From: a bacterium
Lineage (GTDB): Bacteria; Patescibacteriota; Patescibacteriia; Patescibacteriales; UBA12465
Reading direction: 5' to 3'
Length of the DNA: 64,000 nt
Assembly (NCBI GenBank): GCA_030696105.1
Contig: JAUYNJ010000004.1
Location: 13,872-77,871 of the forward strand
How positions within the stretch are numbered: the stretch's first letter is position 1; each line of letters starts with the position of its first letter. Shown here piece after piece: positions 24,738-40,139 of this stretch. The notes beneath the pieces were generated by a model. The model ran no database searches, had not been told where the DNA came from, and saw nothing but the letters and a program-made list of their open reading frames with translations. Both the position numbers and the translations under genes were made by a program.

Positions 24738-26963
24738 CTATTCCGGTGCAAAGCCACTTTCAATTTGTTCAATAAAACCTTCAACCGCGGGACGAAGAGA
24801 CGGATCAACTTCCGCCGCCTTTACTGCCGCTGTTAATGCCTCTTCAAGATTGCCTGCCTTCAGCTCCGCCTGAGCGAGGTTAGCGAGCAGCAAAGCCTCT
24901 TCAACTTGGGTTGATAGGGCTCGATAGGTGAGCAGAAGGCGCTCGTCATCTTTCGCCTCATAATATCGTGTCGAGAATTCTTTTAAGACGGCTGTCATTA
25001 GAGTTCTTCCCCCGCCCTGTAAACAAGTTTCAACGTAAGGCGCAGCTTCTTCAACTCTTTCAACCACAAAATAAAAGTTCGCGAGCTGACAGTGACCTTC
25101 AATGTATTCTGGATTTAAAGATTGAGCATACAGAAAGGTTTCTTCAGCGCCATCAATGTCGCCGCGGCTAGCGAGTATTTGTCCCTTTACGAAATACACT
25201 GGTGAACGGCGCGGACTGGCGGCAATCGACTTATCAATCGCCTCAACCGCCTTATCTGAATATTGCGCGAAGAGTGAAGGCTGATTAGTGTAATAGCGAG
25301 AAATGATGTCGTAAATTTGTGCGGCCTGCATTTGGGCCAAGCTGTCGTTTGGATTATAGGCAAGGTTCTTTTCTAATTCGGCTTCAACAAAATCGATACC
25401 TTCTTTGTAATTATCAGGCGAGAAGTACTGAAATATTGTAGGGTTGCTGATCACAATATTTATTACGGTTGTGCGGGCATCACGCACCAGCGGTGAATTA
25501 ATCGCTAGGGCATCACGATAGGCGTTAAAGCCCTTAACATACAGAGAAGAGGCGACATAGGAATACGCGTCAATGACGCGACTGAGCATTCTCATCGAAC
25601 GGACATTGTAGGTAAAGACAACAAAAAGCATTAACAGTCCGACAAGAATTAGACCTATATATTCTTTAGTGTCGGAGATAGCAGGCACATTCGAGACCGG
25701 TTCTGTTTCTATTTCAGGGCGAGTGATAAATATAAGATACGCGAGCGAAATCATCAGCCCCATGTAAGTCGGCAAAGAATCAAACACCGCTAGGTTTTGA
25801 ATGAAATAAGCAGTAAGTAAGGCAGCCATCACGAGTAACTCGCGCATCGCTGTTCCTTCAGACCCCGGCAAAACTCTATAAGCATGCCTCTTCACCGCTT
25901 TCAGCCAGGCCATTAAAGCAGCAATAAAAATACTTAAGTAAGCAAATAAGCCAACGAGACCAGTGGTGGAAACAATATCAATTAAATTATTATGAGCACG
26001 ATCAAAATATGTTTCGGTTGTTGAATAATTAAAGAATTCTGGATTAAACTGACGATCAAAGATAATCGCGTAATTACCAAAGCCCGTTCCTAATATCGGA
26101 TGAGCCGGAAAATCACGCATTGCTCCTTCCCAAGAAAGCCAACGCGTCTGGAAGGTTGCCTTATTTACACTCAAATCTTTCAAGAATGAATTCTCCTGAA
26201 ACCAAGCTTGATTATATTGTGAAAACAATGCCACAACGGCAATAACGGCAATGGAAAAAGTAATGAGGGCAATTTGACGCAAACGACGACGGTGAGCAAA
26301 CAAACCGAGCAAGAAAATTAGTAAGAGCACGCTCACACCTAAACCAATAATCGCGCCCGAAGTGTCAGCTCTAAAAAAGGCGACGAGCATCAGAATAATA
26401 CTGATATAGAAGGGCCACTGTTTCATGATTGTCGTGCGCAAGCATAGAAGCACCGCAAAATAGATATTGAAGAGCATGTAACCACTGACGTAGGCAGTGT
26501 TACCAATTGTGCCGATGCGCTCTCCGGTGAGAATAATAAAGGCCTGAATAGTTGCCACTAAGACTGAAGCAGACAAAAGCAAATACCAGTCATCACGCGT
26601 ACGAAAAACAGTGATGATATATAAATAGAATAGGAAAAAATGAAATATATGAAAAAATCCAAGCAGACGCTCGACATCACCCCAAAAACTGAGATTAAAA
26701 TCAATGCCTGTAAAACTGGTGATTAAAATTGCCGCCAGGAAGGCAGTGAGACCCCAGGTAATATATGATTTTGCTGGACGGAAGGCAGGAAACTTCCAGA
26801 TAAGCACTAACCAAAAAGGTAGCAGTAGCTCCATTAAAATATTGAAGCTTAATTGCTTCGAAGATATATAGGGGAAAAGGAGATTGCTAAAAAGCAAAAA
26901 TATTACCCCTAAAGAGGCAAAAATACCAATTTGCAAGATGCGTTGATAAGTACTCGCGGACAT
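24738..26963 (-). CDS. O-antigen ligase/polymerase-like (Wzy_C) membrane protein fused to C-terminal TPR repeats
   Basis: 741 aa. About 12 TM helices with a Wzy_C-like loop (FDRAHNNLIDIVSTTGLVGL), then ~300 aa of TPR-like repeats. Confidence 0.8.
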   Translation of the reverse strand: MSASTYQRILQIGIFASLGVIFLLFSNLLFPYISSKQLSFNILMELLLPFWLVLIWKFPAFRPAKSYITWGLTAFLAAILITSFTGIDFNLSFWGDVERLLGFFHIFHFFLFYLYIITVFRTRDDWYLLLSASVLVATIQAFIILTGERIGTIGNTAYVSGYMLFNIYFAVLLCLRTTIMKQWPFYISIILMLVAFFRADTSGAIIGLGVSVLLLIFLLGLFAHRRRLRQIALITFSIAVIAVVALFSQYNQAWFQENSFLKDLSVNKATFQTRWLSWEGAMRDFPAHPILGTGFGNYAIIFDRQFNPEFFNYSTTETYFDRAHNNLIDIVSTTGLVGLFAYLSIFIAALMAWLKAVKRHAYRVLPGSEGTAMRELLVMAALLTAYFIQNLAVFDSLPTYMGLMISLAYLIFITRPEIETEPVSNVPAISDTKEYIGLILVGLLMLFVVFTYNVRSMRMLSRVIDAYSYVASSLYVKGFNAYRDALAINSPLVRDARTTVINIVISNPTIFQYFSPDNYKEGIDFVEAELEKNLAYNPNDSLAQMQAAQIYDIISRYYTNQPSLFAQYSDKAVEAIDKSIAASPRRSPVYFVKGQILASRGDIDGAEETFLYAQSLNPEYIEGHCQLANFYFVVERVEEAAPYVETCLQGGGRTLMTAVLKEFSTRYYEAKDDERLLLTYRALSTQVEEALLLANLAQAELKAGNLEEALTAAVKAAEVDPSLRPAVEGFIEQIESGFAPE

Positions 26964-27033
26964 AGAGTTTTGAGTATATTAATTGAAATCGCTAAGGTTA
27001 TTATATATTATAACAAAAAAGATAACAATCTTC

Positions 27034-27061
27034 TTGATAACAAAAATAAATCTGCTATAAT
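27034..27061 (+). promoter_or_regulatory. strong extended -10 promoter with no downstream plus-strand CDS
   Basis: TTGATA (27034..27039), 16 nt, TGcTATAAT (27053..27061). Confidence 0.55.
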
Positions 27062-27067
27062 ATACTC

Positions 27068-27131
27068 ACAATACCTAGAGATCTCACGATCTCCTAGGCC
27101 CCGAGGACTCCCGCAAGGGGGTCCGTTTTTA
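27068..27131 (+). ncRNA. candidate orphan small RNA (~64 nt)
   Basis: Starts after the promoter. Hairpin 1 is cctagagatc-tcac-gatctcctagg. Hairpin 2 is ggactccc-GCAA-gggggtcc followed by gtttttatt (intrinsic terminator). Lies between two minus-strand genes. Confidence 0.4.
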
Positions 27132-27223
27132 TTCTCAAATATCATAGCAAATACCCCATGAAGACACCTTAAATTGTAAATAAAAAAACTGCAGCTATAA
27201 GGCTGCGGATTTATATACGCTAT

Positions 27224-28360
27224 TTATTTAATCGCAGCGGCAATGGCCGGGGCGATACGCACGTCAAATGGGTCTGGCAATATTTTATCCACGCTTAAAT
27301 CTAAAACTAAGGCGGCTAAGCTCTCCGCCGCCTGCACCAACATCGCGTCGCTAATGTGCTTAACCTTGTTATCTAAAGCGCCACGAAAAACGCCGGGGAA
27401 AATTAAGACGTTATTAATCTGATTCCTAAAATCACTGCGACCACTCGCGACCACGAAGGCCCCGGCCGCTTCAGCTTCAGCTGGCATGATTTCAGGTAAA
27501 GGATTAGCAAGCGCAAAAACAATCGCTTTTGGCGCCATAGCTTGAACCATTTCAGCGCTGACTAAACCAGCCGAAGAAACACCAATAAACACATCGGCGC
27601 CAACTAAGACCTCCGCCAAAGAGCCTTGGCGCTTTGCGGGGTTAGTAATCGCAGCTAAAGCTTCTTTTTCAGTATCTAAGCCCTCGCGACCAGCATAAAT
27701 TGCTCCCTGACGATCACAGGCGATAATATGCGTGACACCATACCCTAACAAGAGGCGAGCAATCGCATTACCAGCTGCACCCGCGCCACTTAACACTACT
27801 TTAACATCCGCCTTATCACTTCCCCTCAACTTCAAGGCATTAATTAAAGCTGCTAAGACGACAGTCGCTGTTCCATGCTGATCATCATGCATCACGGGAA
27901 TATCTAATTCGGCTTGCAAACGGCGTTCAATTTCAAAACAACGAGGAGCAGCAATGTCCTCTAAATTTATTCCCCCAAACACAGGAGCAATTAACTTTAC
28001 CGCTTTAATGATTTCTTCCGTATCCTGAGTATCTAAACAAATTGGAAAAGCATCAACGTCTGCAAATTTCTTAAAGAGCGCACACTTCCCTTCCATCACC
28101 GGCAAAGCGGCCTCAGGGCCAATGTTGCCTAAACCTAAAACAGCGCTACCGTCAGTTACGACTGCAATCATGTTACCCTTAATCGTGTGCGTATTGGCTA
28201 AACTTTTATCAGCGGCAATGGCATTGCAAACAGCCGCAACGCCAGGAGTATAAGCTAATGAGAGATCATGTTTATCGTCTAAAGGTACTTTTAAGGAGGT
28301 GCCAATCTTGCCCTCAGCAAAAAGGTGTAAAGCTAAAGACTCTTCGTATAAATCAGACAT
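27224..28360 (-). CDS. NAD(P)-dependent malic enzyme (short form, no PTA domain)
   Basis: 378 aa. LAYTPGVA, TDGSAVLGLGNIGP, Rossmann VLSGAGAAGNAIARLL. Confidence 0.88.
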   Translation of the reverse strand: MSDLYEESLALHLFAEGKIGTSLKVPLDDKHDLSLAYTPGVAAVCNAIAADKSLANTHTIKGNMIAVVTDGSAVLGLGNIGPEAALPVMEGKCALFKKFADVDAFPICLDTQDTEEIIKAVKLIAPVFGGINLEDIAAPRCFEIERRLQAELDIPVMHDDQHGTATVVLAALINALKLRGSDKADVKVVLSGAGAAGNAIARLLLGYGVTHIIACDRQGAIYAGREGLDTEKEALAAITNPAKRQGSLAEVLVGADVFIGVSSAGLVSAEMVQAMAPKAIVFALANPLPEIMPAEAEAAGAFVVASGRSDFRNQINNVLIFPGVFRGALDNKVKHISDAMLVQAAESLAALVLDLSVDKILPDPFDVRIAPAIAAAIK

Positions 28361-28517
28361 AAGAAGCGGACGGAAGCGTTTAATATATAAGCGGGACCGA
28401 TGAATAAATTAGTTTAAGTTAATACACCATAGCAAAGTTAAGTTTAAAATAAAAGGGCCGACAATATAAAAAACCTGCAGTTTTTGAAGCTGCAGGTGGG
28501 GGGAAATGAACAAAAAA

Positions 28518-28871
28518 CTAATTTACTGAGACAGTGTCGTGCCAACGGTGTAAAACGAGAATAACGAGAATGGCGAGCACACTGATCGATATACCAAACC
28601 AGGAAAGTATTGCTGCCTGGAAGGTTAGGAAGGAGCCGATGACAGTAATTGTTGTCACGGCCGAGCGAAATGCGAAGCGCGTCGAAGTAATCGCGACTGA
28701 AGCCAGGGCCGCCATCAATATGATAAGCGGGGCTACCTGTACGCCTTTTAAAGCGGAAACTCCAATAGCGCAGGCGGTGATTGCACTCAATATCGCCACT
28801 CTTGTTTCTGCGTCTTCATCAATAGCAAAGCATAGGGCGCCGAAAATGAACAGATAGATAAATGGTTCCAT
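28518..28871 (-). CDS. hypothetical small membrane protein (about 4 TM)
   Basis: 117 aa, hydrophobic throughout. Start lies 3 nt after the hppA stop. Confidence 0.55.
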   Translation of the reverse strand: MEPFIYLFIFGALCFAIDEDAETRVAILSAITACAIGVSALKGVQVAPLIILMAALASVAITSTRFAFRSAVTTITVIGSFLTFQAAILSWFGISISVLAILVILVLHRWHDTVSVN

Positions 28872-28874
28872 TTT

Positions 28875-30977
28875 TTAGAATATTAAATAGTGTAGCCACA
28901 AAGTGACCGGAAGAAATAGAATAGAAATAGTAACCATTAGTTTGGTTAAGATGTTAAGAGACGGAGCAACCGTGTCTTTGTAAGGATCACCAACACAGTC
29001 ACCGGTCACGGAGGCTTTGTGAGGCAGTGAGCCTTTGCCGCCGTGTAATCCAGATTCGATTAGCTTTTTTGCATTATCCCAGGCACCACCTGCATTTGCC
29101 ATATAAACACCTTTACTAAAAGCAGATGCAACGGCACCGAGTAAAAAGGCCGTAAGCATGGCAGGGCCACCAATAACTGCAACCGATAGCGGGATAATTG
29201 ATACAAGTATTGCCGGCACTAGGCTATATTTTTGTGCAGCCGCAACGGCGATACTTACGCACTTTTGGTAATCAGGCAAAGACTTGCCTTCTAGAATGCC
29301 AAGTTCAACAATCTGTCTTTCAACTTCTTCCATTATTACGTACGCGGTATTACCAACAGCCCGCAATAATTTAGCTGAGAAAATCCAAGGAATTGATACA
29401 CCGAGAATAATCCCAGTAATGACGAAGGAGTTGGTAATTTCGAGATTAATTTGTGAGGCGTCAACTCCCAATTTGCCAGTTACAATAGCCGTCAGATGCC
29501 ACAGTGCAGCTAACAAAGCGATAGCAGCAAAAGCAGCTGAACCAATTGCATAACCCTTACCAGTAGCGGCGGTAGTATTGCCAAGAGCATCTAAATCGTT
29601 ACCGATTTTTGCTCTCTCACCATGAATTCCCGTCATCTCTAGTAATCCCTGGGCATTGTCTGCAATTGCCCCAAAGGCATCGATACTTAAGGTAATAGGC
29701 AAGGTTGATAACATGGCAACGGCAGCAATACTGATACCGTACACGTCTCCAAAATAATAGGCCAACATCATATATAACACCAAGGCTACTCCAGTATAGG
29801 TGGCGCTCTCGCTACCAATAGCGAGGCCCTCCACTATAACATTTGCATCCCCGCCTCTAGCTTTATCGGCGAGTTTTTTTACTGGATTGAAGCAAGTGCT
29901 TGTATAGTACTCAGCAATATAGGCAATGGTGTTGCCAGCGGCTAAACCGATTAACACACAATACCATAAGTTGAGATCACCCATGATGCGATAAATGAGA
30001 AAACCACTACCGACAGCGACAATGGCCGAAGTAATGTAGACAGCTCGACGGAAGCTCTTCAGGAGCTGCCTAAAACCATGTCCATCAACTTTTATCGACC
30101 AGATACCAACAATAGAAGCTAAGACGCCAATTGCCGAAATGGCAAGCGGAATCATAAGCATTTGTGAGGCTAAAATTCCAAGACCGTAATACATAGCACT
30201 AGTCTCGTAGGAATGCACTCCTGCTTCCATAGCGGCAGCGTTTCCAGCAACATAAGACTCATATAAATCCTGTCCCATGCCACCACAATCACTTGCAATG
30301 TCACCGGCATTATCACCTATAGTTGCCGGATTACGTTTGTCGTCTTCCGCCATACTATAACGACCTTTACCCACTAAATCAGCTGCAAAGTCCGCAGCTT
30401 TAGTAAAAATACCACCAGCAACTCTGGCCATAAAAGCCATAAAGCTACCACCAAAGGAAAAGGTAATGATGGTGGTGGTTAAAATTGTGCTGATTTCAGT
30501 ATCACTTAAATGTGCATTGTTGGTGTAAATAATCAAATACCAGATAAAGAGGTCAAGCAGCACAAAACCGCAGACACTAAATCCCATAATTGCTCCTCCA
30601 CTTAAAGAGGTGTACACCGCCTGTCTCAGCCCATCCTTTGTGCTCACAGCAGTAGCCGCGTTCGCAAAGGTTGCGTAATACATGCCCACGAAGGCTGAGA
30701 GCGCTGAAAATGCAGCACCCGACAATACAGCAAAAGGTACATACCACGTCACAAACTCTTTACTAGCCAGATATAATAGGAGCACGAATATTGCACCTAT
30801 AATTTTGAAAGACGTTCCGTACTGCTTCATGATGAAGCTCATGACCGCCTTTCGAATATATCCGGCAATTTCTTGCGTGTCCGGATCAATCAGGATGCGC
30901 ATAATAAACAGTCGTCGATTCAAGACGACGGCAAAGGCCATAATAAATCCAACCGCAATAATCAGAAGGTTTTCCAT
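28875..30977 (-). CDS. hppA: membrane-bound proton/sodium-translocating pyrophosphatase
   Basis: 700 aa polytopic protein. H+-PPase motifs GDNAGD, GGAWDNAKK, GDCVGDPYKDTVAPSLN. Confidence 0.92.
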   Translation of the reverse strand: MENLLIIAVGFIMAFAVVLNRRLFIMRILIDPDTQEIAGYIRKAVMSFIMKQYGTSFKIIGAIFVLLLYLASKEFVTWYVPFAVLSGAAFSALSAFVGMYYATFANAATAVSTKDGLRQAVYTSLSGGAIMGFSVCGFVLLDLFIWYLIIYTNNAHLSDTEISTILTTTIITFSFGGSFMAFMARVAGGIFTKAADFAADLVGKGRYSMAEDDKRNPATIGDNAGDIASDCGGMGQDLYESYVAGNAAAMEAGVHSYETSAMYYGLGILASQMLMIPLAISAIGVLASIVGIWSIKVDGHGFRQLLKSFRRAVYITSAIVAVGSGFLIYRIMGDLNLWYCVLIGLAAGNTIAYIAEYYTSTCFNPVKKLADKARGGDANVIVEGLAIGSESATYTGVALVLYMMLAYYFGDVYGISIAAVAMLSTLPITLSIDAFGAIADNAQGLLEMTGIHGERAKIGNDLDALGNTTAATGKGYAIGSAAFAAIALLAALWHLTAIVTGKLGVDASQINLEITNSFVITGIILGVSIPWIFSAKLLRAVGNTAYVIMEEVERQIVELGILEGKSLPDYQKCVSIAVAAAQKYSLVPAILVSIIPLSVAVIGGPAMLTAFLLGAVASAFSKGVYMANAGGAWDNAKKLIESGLHGGKGSLPHKASVTGDCVGDPYKDTVAPSLNILTKLMVTISILFLPVTLWLHYLIF

Positions 30978-31152
30978 TTTCGCATTCTTTTAAGGTTAGT
31001 ACTGTGTAGAATTATTTTTCAATTGTGAAAGTGCGATGCACCTCATAAATTAGCACTAGGGGTGCAAATGTCAAGACTGGCATTTTTAAAAAAAGACTTG
31101 CAGTCAAACAAAAAGCCCCGACAAATTATCGGGACTTTACAATTTTCCAATA

Positions 31153-31356
31153 TTATTCTTTTTCCGCCTCAATCACCGATTGAATCACAGCCGGACTGGC
31201 AGTGTCAGCCTTATTAGTCGAGGGCGTCAATTCAGTTTCATCCTGAGACTGTGGGCGAGGTTCTAAGAGGTTCTTAGGACCGGACGTGGCATCGCCTAGC
31301 GAGCAGGCACTAAGTACGAGCGGGAGCAAAAACAAAAGCGTTAAGAGCTTTTTCAT
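31153..31356 (-). CDS. small lipoprotein
   Basis: Start set at MKKLLTLLFLLPLVLSAC (lipobox LSAC). 67 aa. Confidence 0.6.
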   Translation of the reverse strand: MKKLLTLLFLLPLVLSACSLGDATSGPKNLLEPRPQSQDETELTPSTNKADTASPAVIQSVIEAEKE

Positions 31357-31423
31357 ATTGTTAGTATATATTTTATTATCTGTTCTCAAGTATCCCATTA
31401 TCTTCTAATTTTGTAAAGAGGTA

Positions 31424-31458
31424 TTAAAAAGCCCAACTCTGAGTGAGAAGGGCTATGT
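31424..31458 (-). repeat. terminator module copy A (33/35 identical to 32592..32626)
   Basis: ttaaaaagcccAactctgaGtgagaagggctatgt. AGCCC/GGGCT stem with inner CTC/GAG pairs. Lies just 3' of gene 31469..31891. Confidence 0.8.
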
Positions 31459-31468
31459 TTTGAATGTT

Positions 31469-31891
31469 TTACAGTTTAGTCAGCTCGTTATCCTGCTGAA
31501 ATATCGCTATGCCAGCCAAGAAAGCAATGACGCTAAAATTGATAACGAAATATTCTATAATTTCAATTGCATCTTTGCTCAAGGAGCTATCATATTGAAA
31601 GTATGACATCATTCCGTGCCAAATTATTAAGCCAAGACCGATAACTGTAATTACTATCACTGACGAGGCCACATATTTATTGAGGCCGTTCTTTTTCCCA
31701 GTTTTAATGGCTTTTATCAGAAGTTGCCTGTGTGTCAGTAAGAAGAAATAACTAGCTACCGTCGCCAATGACAAGCTGTAAAGAACAGTCCCTGGCGATT
31801 CCGGTGGCAACTTCTCTCTCATCACTAAGTATACAATCACCGCCATAATGGTGCCGCCCGCAACGGTGGCAACCTTTATTACAACCCACAT
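31469..31891 (-). CDS. small polytopic membrane protein, cassette family member (lacks the family N-terminal helix)
   Basis: 140 aa, 4 TM. The segment LLTHRQLLIKAIKTGKKNGLNKYVASSVIVITVIGLGLIIWHGMM aligns by eye with LMRRQLYMRSLRTIKKFLPGVYVLAVAMVFSFLGLCLLTWQVM of 32635..33195. Confidence 0.65.
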   Translation of the reverse strand: MWVVIKVATVAGGTIMAVIVYLVMREKLPPESPGTVLYSLSLATVASYFFLLTHRQLLIKAIKTGKKNGLNKYVASSVIVITVIGLGLIIWHGMMSYFQYDSSLSKDAIEIIEYFVINFSVIAFLAGIAIFQQDNELTKL

Positions 31892-31896
31892 TAATC

Positions 31897-32007
31897 TCAG
31901 CTATATTCCCTGGTGCTGTAGCGCCAGTTGCGAATCCCTAGCACTATGAAATACATTAGAGCGATTGCCGTAATCACAGCAATGCCAATTACAAAGTTTG
32001 TTTCCAT
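31897..32007 (-). CDS. 36-aa ORF homologous to the N-terminal TM helix of 32635..33195 (split paralog or mini-protein)
   Basis: METNFVIGIAVITAIALMYFIVLGIRNWRYSTREYS* versus METIFLIGIAVITAIALLYVILLKARINNYSNRSD. The stop TGA lies 5 nt before the ATG of 31469..31891. Below the ORF-track size cutoff. Confidence 0.5.
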   Translation of the reverse strand: METNFVIGIAVITAIALMYFIVLGIRNWRYSTREYS

Positions 32008-32141
32008 GACTACTTGGTTTACTATGTGAATGTTTCCTCATCATACGGCTCATCAAGATTCTCGTGTAGCTGAGAATCGTCTAACTCAATTGGCATCAAT
32101 AGGCCAGAAATACATATGAATGCGTAGGCACCGATAAAATG

Positions 32142-32465
32142 CTAGACTATCAGCTGCAAATATATTACCAAGCACAAAGCGAGGCAAAACAGAGCGGACA
32201 AAAATACATAGGGCTGAAATAGGCCCGGAAATTCAACTTTTTCGCCGATAACAGGCGCATCAAGTAAGCCGATAAGGGCAGCGAAGTAGGCGATGGTTAC
32301 GGTCAGCAGCATACTATCTGCGGAGTCGGAAATAGTTATGTAAACAAGTAATATAGCCGCTGGGATGGTGCACCAAATAATTTTCAACATGGCAGGGCTA
32401 ATACTAATACGCCAAGTTCTTTTTTCAATCCATTTTCCGATGTAGAAAGCAACGAATGAAAACAA
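32142..32465 (-). CDS. small polytopic membrane protein; true start uncertain
   Basis: The 107-aa ORF begins at TTG. The in-frame upstream codons (IIEKFYFTFGAVIAGA) continue a hydrophobic helix back to a TAA at ~32523. The real start may therefore be a rare ATC/ATA/ATT codon near 32510..32520. Confidence 0.55.
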   Translation of the reverse strand: MFSFVAFYIGKWIEKRTWRISISPAMLKIIWCTIPAAILLVYITISDSADSMLLTVTIAYFAALIGLLDAPVIGEKVEFPGLFQPYVFLSALFCLALCLVIYLQLIV

Positions 32466-32556
32466 TGCGCCAGCAATAACGGCACCAAAGGTGAAGTAGA
32501 ATTTTTCTATGATTTATGAGTTTTGAGGATGAAATTGTAAAATGAACTATCCCGCA

Positions 32557-32585
32557 ACATTAGAACATTTTGAACTATTTGTCAA
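32557..32585 (-). promoter_or_regulatory. cassette promoter P1
   Basis: Minus strand TTGACA (32585..32580), 17 nt, TAATGT (32562..32557). Abuts terminator copy B. Confidence 0.65.
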
Positions 32586-32591
32586 ATTTAT

Positions 32592-32626
32592 TTAAAAAGC
32601 CCGACTCTGAATGAGAAGGGCTATGT
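32592..32626 (-). repeat. terminator module copy B
   Basis: ttaaaaagcccGactctgaAtgagaagggctatgt, just 3' of gene 32635..33195. Confidence 0.8.
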
Positions 32627-32634
32627 GTGAGAAC

Positions 32635-33195
32635 TTATTCTGCTTGTTTGCGGATGTCTTCCGCGATTTTTTTCATCATTTCTATGAATTCTCTTCTTGC
32701 AGCAGCCAATGTGTTAATGGCGATAAAAAACAAAACAAAGCACATAGCAATTGTAGCTACATATTGGCTATATGCATACTCAAACATGTCCATATCCATC
32801 ACCTGCCACGTCAATAAACATAGGCCGAGAAAGCTGAAGACCATTGCCACGGCCAGTACATATACACCAGGCAGAAATTTTTTAATGGTCCTTAGGGATC
32901 TCATATACAACTGCCGACGCATTAATATAAAACAAGCGCTGGCAAGCACTGCAAACAAATAGGAATGTAGAGCGATGACTGTAAATTCATTCATCAACAG
33001 ATTGCCTTGGGTGTAAAATATCAGTGCCCCCTGTACAATCAGACCAACAATTATTGTCGCTCTATAGAAATCGTCAAATAGGCCGAACATGTCAGACCGA
33101 TTACTGTAGTTGTTGATGCGCGCCTTTAGAAGGATTACGTAAAGAAGAGCAATTGCCGTAATTACAGCGATGCCAATTAAGAAAATTGTTTCCAT
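32635..33195 (-). CDS. small polytopic membrane protein, cassette family member (full length)
   Basis: 186 aa, about 5 TM plus a charged C-terminal helix (REFIEMMKKIAEDIRKQAE). ATG start. Confidence 0.7.
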   Translation of the reverse strand: METIFLIGIAVITAIALLYVILLKARINNYSNRSDMFGLFDDFYRATIIVGLIVQGALIFYTQGNLLMNEFTVIALHSYLFAVLASACFILMRRQLYMRSLRTIKKFLPGVYVLAVAMVFSFLGLCLLTWQVMDMDMFEYAYSQYVATIAMCFVLFFIAINTLAAARREFIEMMKKIAEDIRKQAE

Positions 33196-33239
33196 GATAT
33201 GGGGGGATTTTGGTTTAATTGTTAAAGAAGGTTCCTAGA

Positions 33240-33268
33240 ACATTAGTACATTATTGACATTTTGTCAA
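33240..33268 (-). promoter_or_regulatory. cassette promoter P2 with overlapping palindrome
   Basis: Minus strand TTGACA (33268..33263), 17 nt, TAATGT (33245..33240). The -35 sits inside the perfect inverted repeat ttattgaca-ttt-tgtcaataa (33251..33271). Confidence 0.65.
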
Positions 33269-33316
33269 TAAATAACCCTCGCCGAAACAAGGGGGTATTT
33301 TTTGCTCTTTTTTTAG

Positions 33317-33850
33317 CTATTCTTCGCCACGGCTAAGGTGGCGGTCGAAGTCTTCTAGTCTTCCCTGCAGTCGAACCGTTGTGACTGTAATGGAAGCGAG
33401 TAGTAGTGTTATCACGACACCAGCGCCTTTGACATTAATATCAGGACTAGCACCAGCAAAACCCATCGAGGCTGCGAACACAAGCGCGGTGAGTCCGTGC
33501 ATGAGAGCCATCAATATGACATTAATTGAGCGTCTTGGTGCGTAGGGGTCCCGATTGTTGTATATAACGAAATATACAAGCAGAAATAGGTTCAGCACTA
33601 TAAAGAAGAATGAGAAACCAGTGCTGTCAATTAGCACGTCCGCTCCCCTCCTTTCAGCATTGATTATTACCCGAAAGATCAAGCTAGCGATAATCATCAG
33701 CCACATTAGGAAGCCGAGATGCGGCGGCGTTGGTGCGGGTGACACTTCTTTAAAATACATCATCACGCATAGCAGAGCGATTGCAGCGCCAAGAATGAGC
33801 CAGGAATATTCACTGGGTAAGGTGCCGAAAATTTCAGTTAAAGTTTCCAT
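33317..33850 (-). CDS. small polytopic membrane protein, distant cassette family member
   Basis: Start preferred at ATG 33850 (METLTEIFG...), matching the MET- starts of the paralogs; the ORF-track start at 33889 is TTG. About 5 TM, charged C-terminus. Confidence 0.65.
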   Translation of the reverse strand: METLTEIFGTLPSEYSWLILGAAIALLCVMMYFKEVSPAPTPPHLGFLMWLMIIASLIFRVIINAERRGADVLIDSTGFSFFFIVLNLFLLVYFVIYNNRDPYAPRRSINVILMALMHGLTALVFAASMGFAGASPDINVKGAGVVITLLLASITVTTVRLQGRLEDFDRHLSRGEE

Positions 33851-33903
33851 TGGTTGCTGTTTTTTTTGGGGAGTTAGAAAATTTGACAATGAACAATATG
33901 TCT

Positions 33904-33932
33904 ATATTAATAATTTTTTCTATTTTTGTCAA
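33904..33932 (-). promoter_or_regulatory. cassette promoter P3
   Basis: Minus strand TTGACA (33932..33927), 17 nt, TAATAT (33909..33904). Confidence 0.6.
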
Positions 33933-34039
33933 ATCCTCCGCTATAGTTCAATAGCTTGAAAACACTTGTAATAGCTACGTCCCTACAAACCAAAAAAGAT
34001 GCCTGAAAGCATCTTTTTGTGAGTATTACAGAGTATTAT

Positions 34040-34681
34040 TTAGTTTGAACCGGGTTTGATAATGCTTCTAATTAAGCTGCGAAGACCGCGCTCTTTTTTT
34101 CTATCAGGCATTGTTTTAAGATTTTCATGCCCTTGAGTCTTATAATCTTTTATCTCCGCGTGTTGATCTTCTATTGCCACACCCTCAAGGTGAGCGTATT
34201 CCTCCACTAATACTTTGCGGTCTAAGCTCTCAACAACATCAACCTCGCTCATTTCCTTTGATTCCCCTTCCTCCCGATTAACATATATTTTTCCCTCCTC
34301 CGCTGAAACGGAAGCTGCCCCGATGATGCCCTTATTCTCAGGATTCAGTTCTTTAACGTCAAATTCATCGACTGAAGTTAATAGGAGCTCCTCATTGGAC
34401 ATCGTTGAGGCTTCGAAATTAGCTTCTTCATCCTCGCCTTCTTTCTTATTCTCCTCCCCGCCTTCACCGTATGACAGGTAATCAGCGTTTGGATCAGCGA
34501 CGTCTCTGATATCGACATAAGTATTGTTAGGATCGTTCTCTGTCACGCGCTTATCGTCTTCATCTCTTACCTCATCCTTAATGAAGTCCTGGTCTTGTGG
34601 CTTCAGATTATGCCGATCTAAAGCTTCGTTGTTTACAGCGCCCATCTCTTGCGCATCTTTAATGCCAAAATTTTCTCTCAT
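34040..34681 (-). CDS. hypothetical highly acidic, probably disordered protein
   Basis: 213 aa, very rich in Glu/Asp/Asn, no hydrophobic core segments, basic C-terminal tail (KKERGLRSLIRSIIKPGSN). Confidence 0.55.
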   Translation of the reverse strand: MRENFGIKDAQEMGAVNNEALDRHNLKPQDQDFIKDEVRDEDDKRVTENDPNNTYVDIRDVADPNADYLSYGEGGEENKKEGEDEEANFEASTMSNEELLLTSVDEFDVKELNPENKGIIGAASVSAEEGKIYVNREEGESKEMSEVDVVESLDRKVLVEEYAHLEGVAIEDQHAEIKDYKTQGHENLKTMPDRKKERGLRSLIRSIIKPGSN

Positions 34682-34843
34682 ACTTTTATTGATTAAAAAT
34701 AGTTATTGAAAATAATAGATAATTAATCCACAACCCTAATATTATATCATATATTCTGAAACTGGCAGTGATAAATGTCAATATATACATAGTGGTAATA
34801 AAAAACCCCTGTCGAAACAAGGGTGTAGATTCTTTGTACTTTT

Positions 34844-35218
34844 TTAAAATACGACTGCTACGAAGTTCGTATTTTTTGTGTCTTTTTTTTCCGGCAATTT
34901 ATTCCACCAATCAAGGGCTTTGGCGGGGGCGGCTGCGTGTGACCAATATGTGTCTCTTCCCTGCATCGGAATTGCCGGCACGTACCAACCAATGGACAAT
35001 CCCCGGCCCAGGAAATACGAACTGCACCAACCTTCGCTGTGACAGTTCTTTTGGTCATGCTCAGCACACGCAGTACACAAAAGCTTTGTTTGTGATACTG
35101 CAGTCTGATATTGTCGCCACAGCCTGACTGGAATAGCGCCGCAGTCATCACATTTGTAGTCCCGCGGGACAACCATGTTGGCGTAATTCACTGTGCCAAC
35201 TTTTTTTACTGTTTTCAT
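34844..35218 (-). CDS. hypothetical Cys-rich (zinc-ribbon-like) protein
   Basis: 124 aa. CDDCG...CTAC pairs plus additional Cys/His (CAEHDQKNCHSEGWC). ATG start, own promoter and terminator. Confidence 0.55.
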   Translation of the reverse strand: MKTVKKVGTVNYANMVVPRDYKCDDCGAIPVRLWRQYQTAVSQTKLLCTACAEHDQKNCHSEGWCSSYFLGRGLSIGWYVPAIPMQGRDTYWSHAAAPAKALDWWNKLPEKKDTKNTNFVAVVF

Positions 35219-35282
35219 CGTGTTGCTTTTTTGGGTTATTATTTAGGTTTTAATGTTCAAATCAAATTTCAGTGTTCAAAAA

Positions 35283-35311
35283 AGTATGTCACGGGCGTGA
35301 AGATTTGTCAA
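35283..35311 (-). promoter_or_regulatory. promoter for the Cys-rich protein gene
   Basis: Minus strand aaataaaTTGACA (35311..35306), 17 nt, CATACT (35288..35283). The upstream AAATAAATTGACAAA context is shared with the cassette promoters. Confidence 0.55.
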
Positions 35312-35400
35312 TTTATTTGGGGGGGGTGCGCACACACATATGGCGGTTTTCTGAGAACTCACATAAAACATGGAAAATAGCTTAGCAGCCTAATATTGAA

Positions 35401-36000
35401 CTATAAAGTTTGCAATGCAATTCGGATAGGCTCTGTTGATACACTAAACTGCTCTGCTAACGGATCGATTATATATTCAGTTAAATCAATGTCTTCAATT
35501 CCGTGAACAGCCAACTGCTTTCTTAATTTTATTAATAATTTTTCCTTATACTCTTTTAATACTGGTTTAGGAACCAAGAAGCAGCCCGCAAAATTATTGG
35601 CCTGAGTTTCAAGAAATCCGTACTGCCGAGCAGGCGCCTTCTCACAAAAATTATAATAATCCTCTAATGACTTAATACCCAGAGATTCGTATAGCTTTTT
35701 ATGTAAAAGAAAATGCCCTAGTTCATGAGCCATAGAAAACCTAACCCTCTTATACTTGTGGTCTTCGAGATATGCCTCATTATCAACATAGACGCTTTTC
35801 CAGTCTGACGTGATAAATGAATCAATACCTGCAAGTCTTTTCAAATCGGGTGTCGGGATAACCTTGATTTTCAGTTTCATTAAGACTTTCTCAATATCAA
35901 TTGGAATATCCGAACCCCAATACTTATCCCTTGATTGGTCTGCTAGTTCCCTTATTTGACCAATTCCAATATAGGGAGCCTTGAAGTGAGAATAGTCCAT
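35401..36000 (-). CDS. ImmA/IrrE family zinc metallopeptidase (COG2856 type)
   Basis: 199 aa. HEXXH motif in FSMAHELGHFLLH. Sits 8 nt downstream of the XRE gene. Confidence 0.85.
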   Translation of the reverse strand: MDYSHFKAPYIGIGQIRELADQSRDKYWGSDIPIDIEKVLMKLKIKVIPTPDLKRLAGIDSFITSDWKSVYVDNEAYLEDHKYKRVRFSMAHELGHFLLHKKLYESLGIKSLEDYYNFCEKAPARQYGFLETQANNFAGCFLVPKPVLKEYKEKLLIKLRKQLAVHGIEDIDLTEYIIDPLAEQFSVSTEPIRIALQTL

Positions 36001-36008
36001 ACAAATAT

Positions 36009-36380
36009 TTAAGCATTTTTAATCAATTTCATTAAACTATCAAGCTCTTCTTTCGAGGGCTTCTTGTTTCGCACCGTTCGGAAAAAGGCGGGCATTAACT
36101 GTAGTAATTCTTGATTATCCATTAAATCAGAAGGAATAATACCCTGCGCGATTTTAGCTTTATCAGAGAAGTCTTGAAGTTTTTCTTTTTCTACTGATAG
36201 TGCTTTCGCCCATAATTTCAAAGTCTTTTCATCGGAAGGAGGAGAAATTAAACCCCTTTCAATTTTACTCCAATTACTTGGATCATAGCTCACCATCTTA
36301 CACACCTCTCGAATGCTTAAATTGGCTTCAGCCCTCAACTCAAAAAGCAAAGAACCGAATTTTCTTAAGTTTTTCGACAT
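36009..36380 (-). CDS. XRE-family helix-turn-helix transcriptional regulator
   Basis: 123 aa. N-terminal HTH_3-like segment (LRAEANLSIREVCKMVSYDPSNWSKIERG). Confidence 0.8.
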   Translation of the reverse strand: MSKNLRKFGSLLFELRAEANLSIREVCKMVSYDPSNWSKIERGLISPPSDEKTLKLWAKALSVEKEKLQDFSDKAKIAQGIIPSDLMDNQELLQLMPAFFRTVRNKKPSKEELDSLMKLIKNA

Positions 36381-36492
36381 ACGATTATTTGTTGGTTAGT
36401 TATTGTGGTAATATTTTACCACACATATTTAAACTGTCAAGAATAACAAAAGGCCCTCCCAAAAGGAGGGCCTAATATCTCATAATAATACT

Positions 36493-37038
36493 CTAATCCA
36501 ACCACTCCCTCACCCCACCGTGCCCTGAACAAGTTCCCCGTCTATTTTTACTAAAGCTATAGGTACCGTCTCGACAAATGGCAGAGGCGCCCGCTGGTTG
36601 ACTTGGAGCATAGGCCGGTGAATGCACAGTGTCGCCATCAACGTTTACATAAGTATTGTTATTTGAAAGTGGAACATCAAACTCTTCCCTCTCAACTGTT
36701 GGGGATGTCACAACAGTCGGTGTGTAGACCGGAGGAGTCACAACTGCCGGAGTAACAACAACTGGCTTCACTTCTGGAGGTGTAACTACAGTCGGAGTGA
36801 CAACGGCTGGTACAACCTCTAAAACTGGGGCTAAAGTCTCAATAACTTTTTCCTCTAAGTTATTAACCGCCTCGGTCTGATATGTCTCTAGACCAGCGCT
36901 TTCTACTTCTGCTGCCCTCTGCTCTTCAACCACACCATAGGCCGGCTCCCCGCCATCGACTACAGGCGCTACATAATTAGTCGTGCAAGCCCCTAGTAAT
37001 ATGGGAAGGGCTAGGAGTAATAATACATACTTTTTCAT
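36493..37038 (-). CDS. lipoprotein with Pro/Val/Thr repeat linker and C-terminal DUF3761-like Cys domain
   Basis: 181 aa. Lipobox LLGAC. VVTP-type repeats (PAVVTPTVVTPPEVKPVVVTPAVVTPPVYTPTVVTSP). C-terminal CRDGTYSFSKNRRGTCSGHGGVREWL. Confidence 0.75.
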   Translation of the reverse strand: MKKYVLLLLALPILLGACTTNYVAPVVDGGEPAYGVVEEQRAAEVESAGLETYQTEAVNNLEEKVIETLAPVLEVVPAVVTPTVVTPPEVKPVVVTPAVVTPPVYTPTVVTSPTVEREEFDVPLSNNNTYVNVDGDTVHSPAYAPSQPAGASAICRDGTYSFSKNRRGTCSGHGGVREWLD

Positions 37039-37170
37039 AAAGTGTTATTAAATGTGATATTTAAATGTTATCGCGTGTGGCAGGTGGAGCAAAAATACGT
37101 TGCCACAGGACTATTTGAGATTTCTGGCAGGCTCCTGATACAATCGTTATTCTAAATAAGAATAAGAAAA

Positions 37171-39006
37171 TTATGACGTTATGTAGGGAGTTAAAGCACT
37201 TGATATAAATGCTTCGATTAAATATACCTTTGGAACCTTTCTCCCTCCAAATAATGAGTTTGTATTGTTTATCTCGGCCTCTAATTGATTTTTTAATTCG
37301 ATTAAAAAGTTGTTTTCTTTTTCTATATCAATAATATCCCCTTTTCTTTCATCGTACCGTTGTATGAATATCGATTTATAACGACTAAGAGAGGCAACGC
37401 CCTCTTGAATTAAAATATCCTTCATCTCACTTGCCTGCAAATATTGAAAATATGCCTCACCCTTACCCGAAGAGTCGTGTAAAAAATTGTAATTGATTAA
37501 TAGACCCAAGTCGTTACGGGATCCAACACCTTTTCTCAAAACTGGAAGTAATTCTTTTTGTATTTTCTCTTTAATATACTGTGGTCTTAATTCTTTAGTT
37601 TTACTATCCACAAAAATCATAAATTCTTTCCACTCGGAAGCTCTAGTGCCATGATAACTCAGGCCGTATGCACTATCATTCCAACCCATAATATCTGTTG
37701 ACCGCTCATTTAAGTTTAAAGGAAAATTATCATCTTCTATCAACTTATTTATATATGTCTTGGCCTGCTCAGTCAGCTCAATTTTAGTTTCTTCTATAAA
37801 TCCTTCTTCTGATAAAGAGAGAAGGACACCAAATACGTGAGAAATAATGAAGAAATCAGTATATTCTTGTTTGTTCCATTTAGTCATTACATCATAAAGC
37901 AAGCTTAAGAAAGCTTCACCATCTAACTCTCTAAAATGCCACAATTTCTGCCACGATGCTTCACGATCAGTGAAAAGACTTCGGATTCTTTCATTAATTT
38001 TAATCTTCTCATTGGGATTTAAACTACTGCCTTGCATTATATTCCCAAGAACCTCGACATCATAGCACATTAACCAATGACTGCTCATATTTTCATATTT
38101 ATCCAAAAAATGGACTTCCTTCTCATGCGAGATATCTTTAAAAAAGGAGTTTTTCTTTGTAAAATCTACGCCTTTTATCACCCCTTTCTTAAACTCAATG
38201 TAAATTACGATAAATTCGTAGATTACTTTGTCGAATATATGAGAGAGTTCATCAATTTCATTATCAATAATTGAATAAAAATGCTCAAAACTTGATATGG
38301 CTTGCTTCATTAATCGTAGATTATTATAGTTTGATTCAAAGAATATTTTAATAAGTACTTGCGTTATTACATCCTTCTTCTTAATTAATGAATCATTCTT
38401 AATATTCTCGATAAACTGCTGAATTGCTTCCTCGGGATTCGAATTTACAATAAATTCTTTTCCGATCAACTTTTCCTTTATGCTTAAATACTTGTTGCAG
38501 GAAGGAAGCTTTAATAATTCCTCTTCATTAGCAATTATAATCACTTTATGACCACGAAACTCTACAAGATGGTTAATGAATCCTAGTAGTTTACTAATTT
38601 CAATATCGGATCTTTCGAGGTCATCAAATATAAATACTAACCCAGTATTTTTTCTATCTAAATAAAAATCAAGAAAGATTTTATTGACATTATTAGGCAA
38701 CACCTCCCTCACGTGAGGAATTAGTTTTATAGCGCTACCTATGACACTTACAGTTTTACTGAGAAATCTTTTTATTTTTGAGGAAGTTGGTAATAATTCA
38801 ATCAAAATTTTTTCATTAATTTCCGTGAAGGTGCTTAGTCCGTATAGGCTGATATGAATATAATTCTTCTTACCATTAATATATTTTCTTATTAGATGAG
38901 TTTTACCACAGCCCCATTCACCTTTTAACAGTACTGCGAACGACAGGTCATTAGTGGCTGCACAATAATAATCCAAATAATCGTTTATGTGCTCGTTGAG
39001 TTGCAT
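37171..39006 (-). CDS. KAP-family P-loop NTPase (apparently soluble)
   Basis: 611 aa. Walker A LLKGEWGCGKTHL near the N-terminus, Walker B LVFIFDDLERS, long helical C-terminal region. No convincing TM insertion. Very AT-rich coding sequence. Confidence 0.85.
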   Translation of the reverse strand: MQLNEHINDYLDYYCAATNDLSFAVLLKGEWGCGKTHLIRKYINGKKNYIHISLYGLSTFTEINEKILIELLPTSSKIKRFLSKTVSVIGSAIKLIPHVREVLPNNVNKIFLDFYLDRKNTGLVFIFDDLERSDIEISKLLGFINHLVEFRGHKVIIIANEEELLKLPSCNKYLSIKEKLIGKEFIVNSNPEEAIQQFIENIKNDSLIKKKDVITQVLIKIFFESNYNNLRLMKQAISSFEHFYSIIDNEIDELSHIFDKVIYEFIVIYIEFKKGVIKGVDFTKKNSFFKDISHEKEVHFLDKYENMSSHWLMCYDVEVLGNIMQGSSLNPNEKIKINERIRSLFTDREASWQKLWHFRELDGEAFLSLLYDVMTKWNKQEYTDFFIISHVFGVLLSLSEEGFIEETKIELTEQAKTYINKLIEDDNFPLNLNERSTDIMGWNDSAYGLSYHGTRASEWKEFMIFVDSKTKELRPQYIKEKIQKELLPVLRKGVGSRNDLGLLINYNFLHDSSGKGEAYFQYLQASEMKDILIQEGVASLSRYKSIFIQRYDERKGDIIDIEKENNFLIELKNQLEAEINNTNSLFGGRKVPKVYLIEAFISSALTPYITS

Positions 39007-39074
39007 AATTATTTAATTATTTATCAAAATTTATTTTATTAATAGCAAAATATGATATATCCTCTCGCGGAAAT

Positions 39075-39938
39075 CTAATTTAATGCTGCTATTTTGGCAT
39101 CCTCAGTGTAATCTTTAAATATTTTAGCAATCTGAGGATACTTTGAGTTTGTATTCATTCTTACTTTATACTCATGCCCAACACGAAGCGCCTTATGATA
39201 ATAAACTTGATCTACACATCCAAAGAACAAACTTCCAGGAGACATTACCTCGTATCGATAGATGTATTCATTTTGCTGTAAATAAGTAACCTCAATAAGG
39301 TGTATCCTTATAATCTGACCACTCATGTCGATACTGCCTAGTTTAGTTTTTTTATTACTATATTTTCTTCTAACTCTAGTTACTTTTAAGGGATCATTTA
39401 ATGCGCCGAGCTTAGACTTTTCGGCGAGAGCGTCTGCTTTTTCATTAAACTCATCCCCTGAATGCGCACGAACTTTGACTATATCAACTTGTTTTCTTGT
39501 CTTATTAGCATTGTGCAATAGTTCTTTCCAAATCTTAACATTCAAAACAGGCTTTCCATCATTATTCCTCCATCCTTGTCGGCTCCACTGAAATAGTGCT
39601 CTTTTATAATTATCAACCATGTATTGAGAATCCGAGTGAACCACTATCCTCGACCAACCTGTTCCTAGGTCAATACTTTTTTCAAGCGCCAGGCAACAAG
39701 CTTTTAATTCCATCTCATTGTTTGTGCTTTTTTTGTAACCTAACGGAGAATATTCTAAAGGCTGTCTTTCCAGGTATTCAGGATATACAAAGACAATCCC
39801 AACGCCTCCCCTTTTGGTCTTGTGACACAGTGCGCCGTCAGTAAAAATATTTAGAGCGTTCGTATCTGTATTCATATACAAGAGACCCTCGATATAATTG
39901 CCATTATTAAAAAGAGCCCCAATGGGCTGATATTTCAA
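39075..39938 (-). CDS. RNase H (type 1) fold protein with ~110-aa uncharacterised C-terminal domain
   Basis: DEDD catalytic set present: IFTDGA, NNEMELKA, VHSDSQY, NEKADALA. The ORF-track start at 39938 is TTG; ATG at 39875 (MNTDTNALNIFTDGA) is an equally plausible start. Confidence 0.85.
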   Translation of the reverse strand: MKYQPIGALFNNGNYIEGLLYMNTDTNALNIFTDGALCHKTKRGGVGIVFVYPEYLERQPLEYSPLGYKKSTNNEMELKACCLALEKSIDLGTGWSRIVVHSDSQYMVDNYKRALFQWSRQGWRNNDGKPVLNVKIWKELLHNANKTRKQVDIVKVRAHSGDEFNEKADALAEKSKLGALNDPLKVTRVRRKYSNKKTKLGSIDMSGQIIRIHLIEVTYLQQNEYIYRYEVMSPGSLFFGCVDQVYYHKALRVGHEYKVRMNTNSKYPQIAKIFKDYTEDAKIAALN

Positions 39939-40110
39939 TATTAAGGTCTAAGTTAGTGCCCTTAAAATGACTGGTCGACTGAGCACGACTTTGAATAAAT
40001 ATGTCTTTAAAAATTTCACGCCTCCTCGTTAACATATAATTAAACCTACGATAACGTATTATTAACCCTGACATTATAATTATTCCACTTTACATGCATT
40101 TCGTCAAAAC

Positions 40111-40139
40111 AAAAGACCCCCGATGAAGGGGGTCTTTTT
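40111..40139 (-). terminator. strong intrinsic terminator after the S-layer-like gene
   Basis: aaaagaccccc-gatgaa-gggggtctttt; on the minus strand it is followed by a T run. Confidence 0.9.

Follow-up and report, generated by a model that had tools for sequence, protein, structure and literature searches.

Does a tandem run of genes for small membrane proteins in a Patescibacteria genome represent one diversifying family of paralogs, and what might its products do for the cell? We addressed this question on a 64-kb stretch of contig JAUYNJ010000004.1 (assembly GCA_030696105.1), called the window below, in which three units, A, B and C-D, carry four such genes on the minus strand. An earlier note on this DNA had read them as a family of paralogs diversifying under independent strong transcription, an architecture expected for immunity, superinfection-exclusion or host-interface membrane proteins. 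On balance, we favor a somewhat different picture, in which accessory units for orphan membrane proteins occupy an insertion hotspot in the chromosome of a Falkowbacteria-like member of the Patescibacteria (Candidate Phyla Radiation, CPR), with gene bodies that would have been swapped by recombination and a putative protective role. The units are predicted to encode orphan inner-membrane proteins of 150-190 amino acids (aa) with about five transmembrane (TM) helices, which fall into at least three sequence families: A; B and D; and C.

Organization of the units and their regulatory modules

The features of the three units are listed below in the direction of transcription.

33932 to 33276, minus strand: unit A (promoter, gene A, terminator hairpin)
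33904..33932, minus strand: promoter of unit A, TTGACA-17-TAATAT
33317..33850, minus strand: gene A, intact, 177 aa, METL start, about five TM helices, an orphan without detectable relatives
33276..33293, minus strand: unit A terminator hairpin, nearly the same as the one at 34806-34823
33268 to 32592, minus strand: unit B (promoter, gene B, terminator module)
33240..33268, minus strand: promoter of unit B, which together with the 5' leader forms the block 33208..33270
32635..33195, minus strand: gene B, intact, 186 aa, METI start, five TM helices, paralog of D
32592..32626, minus strand: terminator module T2 after B, a hairpin and U-run
32585 to 31424, minus strand: unit C-D (promoter, C, D, terminator module)
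32557..32585, minus strand: promoter of unit C-D, TTGACA-17-TAATGT, a 71% copy of the B promoter block
32022..32510, minus strand: gene C, ortholog of the intact C' of a relative, with ATA at the start position and an in-frame TAG
32142..32465, minus strand: open reading frame (ORF) of 107 aa with a TTG start, a portion of the longer frame C
31469..32007, minus strand: gene D, paralog of B, in which a frameshift separates 36 aa (TM1) from 140 aa (TM2-5)
31897..32007, minus strand: ORF of 36 aa with a METN start, the N-terminal half of D (D36)
31469..31891, minus strand: ORF of 140 aa, the C-terminal part of D (D140)
31424..31458, minus strand: terminator module T2' after D, which matches 32592-32626 at 33 of 35 positions

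All the ORFs, the three promoters and the two terminator copies described in the earlier note were present, far above chance, and three products do start with MET(I/N/L), namely A, B and D36. Its count of four to five genes was only partly right: the ORFs exist, but the genes are four, two of the ORFs being the halves of the frameshifted D. The ORF at 32142..32465, taken for a gene of its own, is instead part of frame C. Gene A has a longer ORF with a TTG start that extends to 33889. No Shine-Dalgarno-like motif was found within 20 nucleotides (nt) upstream of about 38 start codons examined across the window, the leaders of which were A/T-rich. Since starts throughout the window are thus without such a motif, a non-AUG start would have little support. 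A tblastn search found no further copies of A, B, C or D elsewhere in the window. The GC content of the units was slightly under the window average, and the AT-rich stretch that they had been said to adjoin directly (37-40 kb, GC 31-36%) lies about 3 kb away from them.

The pattern TTGACA-N16-18-TAATRT occurs four times in the 64 kb, against 0.10 expected, and three of these four sites are the promoters of A, B and C-D. The looser pattern TTGACA-N16-18-TAnnnT occurs nine times in the window. Because each of its other six sites shortly precedes either the tRNA gene or the beginning of a long ORF, this pattern looks like the organism's real promoter consensus. The 35-nt terminator module was confirmed at 33/35 identity and is found at just two sites in the window, 31424-31458 and 32592-32626 (two mismatches, 0 expected by chance). 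The two copies each fold as a hairpin with a U-run behind it (-13 and -12 kcal/mol, z of -4.1 and -3.9). Judged from sequence, these predicted promoters and terminators agree with the idea of independent sigma70-type units with intrinsic terminators, and this autonomous organization holds for every gene from about 35311 to 31112. The claim that each unit has its own promoter held for A, B and C-D, but not for D as a gene, which has none and follows C as it does in the relative described below.

The reuse of regulatory modules, already noticed earlier, goes beyond the membrane-protein genes. The junction at 33249-33297 (49 nt, terminator plus promoter) was 76% identical to 34779-34827, where a soluble 124-aa zinc-ribbon-like gene ends. 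The hairpin CCCTTGTTTCGNCNRGGG is confined to two sites in the 64 kb, at the ends of this gene and of gene A. These junctions and the T2/T2' pair are the sole substantial short repeats in the entire window. Since the junction modules also border soluble genes (the 124-aa gene and an acidic 213-aa gene), the sharing of modules does not imply common ancestry of the genes between them. An Rfam search of 30.9-35.5 kb gave a sub-threshold rimP at 31088-31168 as its sole match, and the conserved leader therefore corresponds to no known RNA element.

The -35 region of the B promoter (33254-33268) forms a perfect palindrome, TTGACAaaaTGTCAA. The palindrome is absent from the relative's copy of this promoter and, not being conserved, is probably fortuitous.

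An intact C'-D' operon in a Falkowbacteria relative

When A and B were searched against 5.8 billion protein clusters with a word index, they matched only themselves, under the records "MAG: hypothetical protein Q8Q67_01700/01705 [bacterium]" (MAG, metagenome-assembled genome). An exhaustive HMMER search of 1.84 billion representatives with a B/D profile returned only B, D and one outside protein (P0004, E 5e-15). This protein, PKM89390.1 from the Candidatus Falkowbacteria MAG GCA_002841655.1, is called D' here. Scans of viral contigs (with the acidic-protein alignment, B and A) and tblastn searches of phage genomes (with B, the acidic protein and A) found no relatives.

The relative's locus was read from contig L082, which is identical to L163, with its 3' end taken from L175. 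It consists, in order, of the surface-protein gene (1177 aa), X, the acidic-protein gene, a promoter, C', D' and a terminator. Both C' (156 aa) and D' (169 aa, about 10 nt past C') are intact. C and C' shared 30% identity (E 3e-15), D and D' 40% (E 6e-28), and B and D' 30%, whereas X (175 aa, 5 TM) has no sequence similarity to A-D. The promoter of a 67-aa lipoprotein gene that follows unit C-D in the window is kept downstream of D' as well. A and B were not found by tblastn in the relative's recovered contigs; gene content thus varies between the two genomes, which are the only ones to carry the locus.

The acidic gene is the sole non-membrane gene common to both versions of the module, encoding 213 aa here and 216 aa in the relative (L082 8708-9358) with 35-40% identity. 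Its product is very acidic and probably disordered, with the conserved blocks M.ENF..NEALDR, ELNPE..G.IGAAS and NREEG and a basic C-terminal stretch, NLKTMP..KK.R..RS.IR..IKP. By eye, this stretch resembles a possible membrane-targeting amphipathic helix. No family or structure match was obtained for the acidic protein.

Divergence of gene bodies, regulatory ends and flanks

Between the two genomes, and also between B and D, the regulatory ends of the units (promoter with leader, first helix and terminator) stay recognizable while the gene bodies are saturated with substitutions. The flanks were about 80% identical in nucleotide sequence up to the terminator of the surface-protein gene, and the flanking genes had nonsynonymous divergence (dN) of 0.03-0.14 and synonymous divergence (dS) of 0.7-1.7, with 395 of 651 fourfold sites (61%) identical. 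Inside the module, nucleotide similarity is lost but for two non-coding blocks. The first is the promoter and leader at 33208..33270 (81% over 63 nt), which stands before B here and before C' in the relative, and the second is the terminator with the next promoter after D or D' (67% over 107 nt). The coding bodies reached a dN of 0.6-0.8 with saturated synonymous sites, and identity at fourfold sites fell to 6/29 in the acidic gene (Fisher p 2e-5 versus the flanks) and 10/30 in C plus D (p 0.004).

Because the bodies are saturated beyond the divergence of the flanks, they appear to be older than the flanks. In-place diversifying selection alone would be insufficient to explain synonymous divergence greater than that of the flanks, and the gene bodies were most likely swapped in by recombination rather than diverged in place. 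Furthermore, the significant protein similarity and the topology kept in the C/C' and D/D' pairs despite saturated synonymous sites point to purifying selection.

Lesions in the C-D operon

The frame of D changes by 1 nt near 31897-31903, where the TGA of one half and the ATG of the other are 5 nt apart. No homopolymer or short repeat exists at this site, on which ground phase variation at the frameshift was ruled out. In C, ATA stands at 32508-32510, where A, B and D begin with ATG GAA; the frame is interrupted at 32142-32144 by a TAG, beyond which 39 further codons are open. D' is collinear with D and reads through the point of D's frameshift, and C' through the position of C's TAG. A second assembly (Logan L001) has identical lesions in C and D. 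C is a probable pseudogene or truncated gene, and the active diversification proposed in the earlier note gives way here to what looks like gene decay in C and D.

The lesions raise the question of whether the units are functionless remnants altogether, either decaying leftovers of an old insertion or partly spurious ORFs with fortuitous promoters. Such an origin would fit the failure of two gene callers to call C or the 36-aa piece of D, and the scarcity of relatives (none for A or B, one for the B/D profile). However, A and B are intact, and each damaged frame bears one or two lesions and is otherwise open. For A, B, both parts of C and D140, codon log-odds were positive in no frame but the proposed one. 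For D36, with its 36 codons, they were near zero, yet the proposed frame was the top of its six frames. The conservation of C/C' and D/D' in protein sequence and topology at saturated synonymous sites, and of the promoter with leader and the terminator across genomes, also speaks against remnants, which we consider highly improbable.

Topology and relatedness of the encoded proteins

The products are, as claimed, mostly TM helices. In a simple hydropathy scan, the relative's X had five hydrophobic cores, as did A, B and C. At the same threshold four were seen in D and C', in which a weaker third helix aligned by eye to TM3 of B. Positive charges gather after TM1, TM3 and TM5, and in B these loops hold 16 Lys and Arg residues versus 0 in the others, a positive-inside bias from which an N-out/C-in topology is predicted for B. 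AlphaFold2 models contained five long helices each in B (modelled with D) and A, but were of low confidence (predicted local distance difference test scores of 52.7 and 60.1), too low for comparing helix packing. A Foldseek search of the A and B models against the Protein Data Bank (PDB) found nothing at E <= 0.001 (TM-score <= 0.38).

Searches of A-D against Pfam and NCBIfam gave best E values of 0.005-0.09, far short of the curated cut-offs; the match to a known transporter or respiratory family that would have spoken against the earlier note was thus absent from both. PHROGs and PADLOC had no match for A, B, C or D, and a sequence search of the PDB gave nothing under E 0.38. In the B/D/D' alignment, no conserved polar or catalytic-looking residue was seen by eye in the helices, which argues weakly against an enzyme or transporter. 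An AgrB-like peptidase was rejected because His77 and Cys88 of B are not conserved in D or D'.

Among the products, B and D are the only demonstrable paralogs. B and the joined D were collinear over 166 residues with 35% identity (E 1e-23 by blastp; 7.8e-16 by tblastn with composition correction), which bears out the strong divergence of the coding sequences despite their nearly identical terminators. The pattern RQL..(K/R)..K....hydrophobic..W reported for two of the products is indeed present in B and D, and also in the outside homolog D' (QRQLLLQSIQLNKK...MLMW). The B/D alignment has no conserved stretch of 7-10 columns. At the nucleotide level the B/D comparison is a mosaic, with 70% identity over codons 1-30, about 40% over codons 31-120, about 50% over codons 121-176 and 94% in the terminator; third positions in codons 31-120 are at chance level.

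The idea that all the units belong to one paralog family fared less well. The earlier note had itself named a lack of significant relatedness in profile comparison as the outcome that would count against it; this was the outcome for A, relatedness is unproven for C, and only the B/D pair is significant. Still, A, B, C, D and X could be one ancient family with the same five-TM fold, driven past recognition by diversifying selection. They share a size class (156-186 aa). In A, B, C and X there are also about five TM cores, a first helix that directly follows an ME-like start, loops with basic residues behind TM1 and TM3, and charges in the C-terminal tail. In addition, hhalign placed B/D/D' and C/C' collinearly over 109 columns (P 0.0019), and blastp without composition correction gave E 4e-4 for C versus D. 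However, the hhalign probability was 14% and reversed-sequence controls reached P 0.018, A and X scored no better than such controls, and composition-based statistics left A and C without any match to B/D. TM composition inflates scores of this kind, and the junction modules flank soluble genes too. A single family is therefore unlikely in our view, the relationship of C to B/D being at best marginal and A appearing unrelated by sequence to B, C or D.

Genomic setting of the units

The units lie in a 13-kb insertion hotspot (26963-40188) between a surface-protein gene (40188-43766, 1192 aa) and a Wzy_C/TPR gene (24738-26963). The genes in it, in window order from 40188 to 26963, are as follows.

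39075-39938: RNase H-like gene, candidate defence module
37171-39006: KAP NTPase, PADLOC match PDC-S49 at E 7.5e-113, GC 31-34%
36493-37038: DUF3761 gene, candidate defence module
36009-36380: HTH_31 gene, regulator pair with the M78 peptidase
35401-36000: capP-like M78 peptidase, PADLOC matches capP and RmrA, E 2e-17
Next in order: 124-aa gene
34040..34681, minus strand: acidic-protein gene, 213 aa, a stand-alone unit with a counterpart in the relative's module
Next in order: A, B and C-D
31153..31356, minus strand: predicted lipoprotein, 67 aa, the next stand-alone unit, with a promoter-like site at 31389-31417 and a terminator at 31112-31138
28875-30977: H+-translocating pyrophosphatase (H+-PPase), inside the island
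Next in order: 117-aa gene
Last in order: malic enzyme

The genes at 35401-39938 form a candidate defence module. A helix-turn-helix (HTH) protein paired with a capP-like M78 peptidase corresponds to regulators described for defence operons (10.1101/2022.04.27.489752), and the KAP NTPase and the M78 peptidase were the only PADLOC matches near the cassettes. The best matches of the H+-PPase were only 43-44% identical among GTDB species representatives and JGI metagenomes, in scans saturated by the generic GAWDNAKK pattern, and this gene is probably horizontally acquired cargo. An accessory, defence-island-like setting is thus supported by hotspot cargo that stands beside a candidate KAP-NTPase/CapP-like module. 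Among the window ORFs scanned with Pfam and PHROGs there were no phage structural, integrase or lysis genes, and no tRNA-linked att site was found, the window's single tRNA being at 11154.

Homologs of the surface protein are named Falkowbacteria or Patescibacteria, and the genes of related Patescibacteria encode 1150-1190 aa. The core genes of the left flank (an extracytoplasmic function sigma factor, a DUF5667-like gene and the surface-protein gene) have counterparts of 80-95% identity in the Falkowbacteria relative. The surface protein as a whole was 79% identical between the two. Its first 100 residues were 99% identical to the Falkowbacteria ortholog and the remainder 63-93%; the N-terminal tract may be a recombination tract or may reflect strong constraint on an N-terminal signal or anchor. 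The C-terminal 160 residues were 73-81% identical in the closest relatives, with no replacement. In four related contigs (L167, L168, L172 and L173), the surface-protein gene (63-65% identical copies) is followed directly by the Wzy_C/TPR gene after about 150 nt. Compared with these genomes, the whole of 26963-40188 is inserted DNA. Elsewhere the hotspot holds a coiled-coil gene (L169/L170), a Gp49-HTH pair (L174) or, in L164, three very small ORFs with one TM helix each, two of which directly follow a TTGACA promoter.

Several contigs end in this region. L164, L165 and L166 (Logan SRR32367551-3), three independent assemblies of one relative with a 72% identical surface protein, all stop some 950 nt beyond the surface-protein gene. 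L171 ends immediately after that gene, and L082 and L163 both end within D'. These assembly breaks suggest strain heterogeneity or repeats at the hotspot.

The position of the locus exactly between the surface-protein and Wzy_C/TPR genes invites a further explanation, in which A-D are envelope accessory subunits that work with the 1192-aa surface protein or with the Wzy_C/glycosyltransferase/sugar-transferase cluster and vary with surface type. LTD/Laminin_G and Bac_transf genes located further along would suit this role, as would alleles older than the flanks, which are also a property of replacement islands. However, the site is empty in most relatives (L167, L168, L172 and L173), which keep both flanking genes, so the proteins are not needed for either neighbor. 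Furthermore, the other cargo is unrelated (a toxin-antitoxin-like pair, a coiled-coil gene, the KAP NTPase, the H+-PPase and malic enzyme), and the surface protein, at 79% identity across the two genomes, has no hypervariable C terminus. Taken by itself, an envelope-linked role is very unlikely, and it is less likely than an exclusion- or immunity-like one.

Comparison with known systems

The closest likeness in organization is to phage morons. The gene 15 moron of the temperate phage HK97 encodes an inner-membrane superinfection-exclusion protein (PMC3594210). Like morons, the units have their own predicted promoters and factor-independent terminators and are inserted between conserved genes, their products would be small inner-membrane proteins, and their patchy distribution, consistent with horizontal spread, leaves them present in some close genomes and absent from others (the four with an empty site). 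Unlike morons, they do not lie in a recognizable prophage: phage structural and integrase genes were absent among the window ORFs scanned, and A-D had neither PHROG nor phage-genome matches. The predicted products have 5 TM helices in 150-190 aa, compared to one or two helices in HK97-type moron products. The GC content is slightly below the window average, and an exclusion role would be assigned here by analogy.

Flexible (replacement or additive) genomic islands adjoin cell-envelope genes. Like them, the locus occupies a fixed hotspot between conserved envelope genes, with strain-variable content and alleles more diverged than the flanks. A cell-wall-associated flexible island is described for Haloquadratum walsbyi (PMC4535781). 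Instead of glycosylation genes, the cargo here is a mosaic that combines metabolic genes and a defence module with orphan membrane proteins, and the comparison extends to few MAG contigs.

Integron arrays consist of an IntI integrase gene with attI and of cassettes that carry attC sites with conserved cores at their 3' ends. The tandem small ORFs of the window, in the same orientation and each with a similar hairpin-forming 3' module, recall such arrays. An integron was nevertheless rejected, as neither an integrase nor a recombinase family appeared in Pfam scans of the longer window ORFs. The 3' hairpins, with their U-runs, are simple intrinsic terminators in which attC-like cores were not seen by eye, and each unit has its own promoter. 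A diversity-generating retroelement was rejected as well, since no reverse-transcriptase family was found among the ORFs scanned, and the 94-nt repeat of B and D has mixed substitution types that by eye are not confined to adenines.

Polytopic immunity proteins are known for membrane-acting toxins. Those against pore-forming colicins (Cai- and Cei-type) are inner-membrane proteins of 3-4 TM helices and about 110-180 aa, expressed constitutively from their own promoters, with allele-specific diversity. The products of the window resemble them as small polytopic inner-membrane proteins with diverse alleles and a predicted promoter of their own. In contrast to colicin immunity, there is no Pfam match at E <= 0.1 and no nearby toxin gene, the predicted topology is 5 TM with the N terminus out, and the host belongs to the CPR. 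With this precedent, the A-D proteins could be current or orphan immunity proteins of a polymorphic toxin, the surface protein carrying a variable C-terminal toxin. In VARTIG/PTS polymorphic-toxin modules, a large surface-protein gene is followed by genome-unique genes (PMC8416519), and the window likewise has a large beta-strand-repeat surface protein and then a genome-specific, variable set of small genes. However, the C-terminal 160 residues of the surface protein are conserved in the closest relatives rather than hypervariable, and this layout was rejected on that ground. Nucleotide synteny also continues through the end of the surface-protein gene and its terminator, the downstream site is often empty, and Pfam found no toxin domain. 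Toxin immunity of this kind is scarcely credible.

Proposed history and function of the units

Since C'-D' is intact in the relative, the ancestral unit was a two-gene operon of promoter, C, D and terminator. The genome studied here contains B as a second D-type gene, accompanied by copies of these promoter and terminator modules. It also has A, a further gene of unrelated sequence, and three apparent lesions (ATA, TAG and the frameshift) mark its copy of the C-D operon. Selection on promoters and terminators would hold the junctions, which may also provide homology for the duplication, deletion and replacement of the bodies. The alleles from which the bodies of the two genomes derive would have separated long before the flanks, and genes would continue to be gained (B and A) and lost (C and D).

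What such proteins do is the more tentative part of our reading. Autonomous, apparently constitutive units in a hotspot that adjoin a defence module, with old alleles and gene gain and loss, favor a dispensable, strain-specific membrane role. By analogy with the systems above, A-D may possibly be constitutive, dispensable membrane proteins with a protective, exclusion- or immunity-like function that bind or block an incoming factor, and they are unlikely to be enzymes or transporters. A more specific proposal, which we regard as quite unlikely, is that the conserved promoter-leader-TM1 and terminator blocks serve as homology arms of a CPR-specific membrane "allotype" system that exchanges five-TM and acidic-partner bodies. 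In such a system, frequency-dependent selection by phages or by the host cell to which these episymbionts attach would drive the swapping, duplication and loss of anciently diverged bodies among Falkowbacteria lineages.

Several points weigh against swapped bodies, gene loss and a protective function. A single outside genome carries the locus, which makes every comparative statement n = 1. The fourfold counts are small, and at 30-40% identity some aligned identities are due to chance, though the blocks of the acidic gene are clear. The assemblies that bear the lesions may share reads, and sequencing, assembly or consensus error could account for the lesions; a split D (TM1 plus TM2-5) could also still function. 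The lack of a toxin or phage gene, of PADLOC or PHROG matches for A-D, and of relatives of A and B in viral contigs or phage genomes counts against the protective role.

Implications

The locus is fairly ordinary strain-specific accessory DNA and opens no long-standing question. If our preferred reading of orphan units with recombined bodies is true, it would add one more example of flexible-island cargo, together with three or four previously unseen families of small membrane proteins in the CPR, where most membrane proteins are unannotated. The chief value lies in the evolutionary pattern, in which regulatory junctions stay recognizable and the bodies between them are saturated beyond the divergence of the flanks. 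With more genomes, it could be cleanly tested whether cassettes are replaced by recombination in an uncultured lineage.

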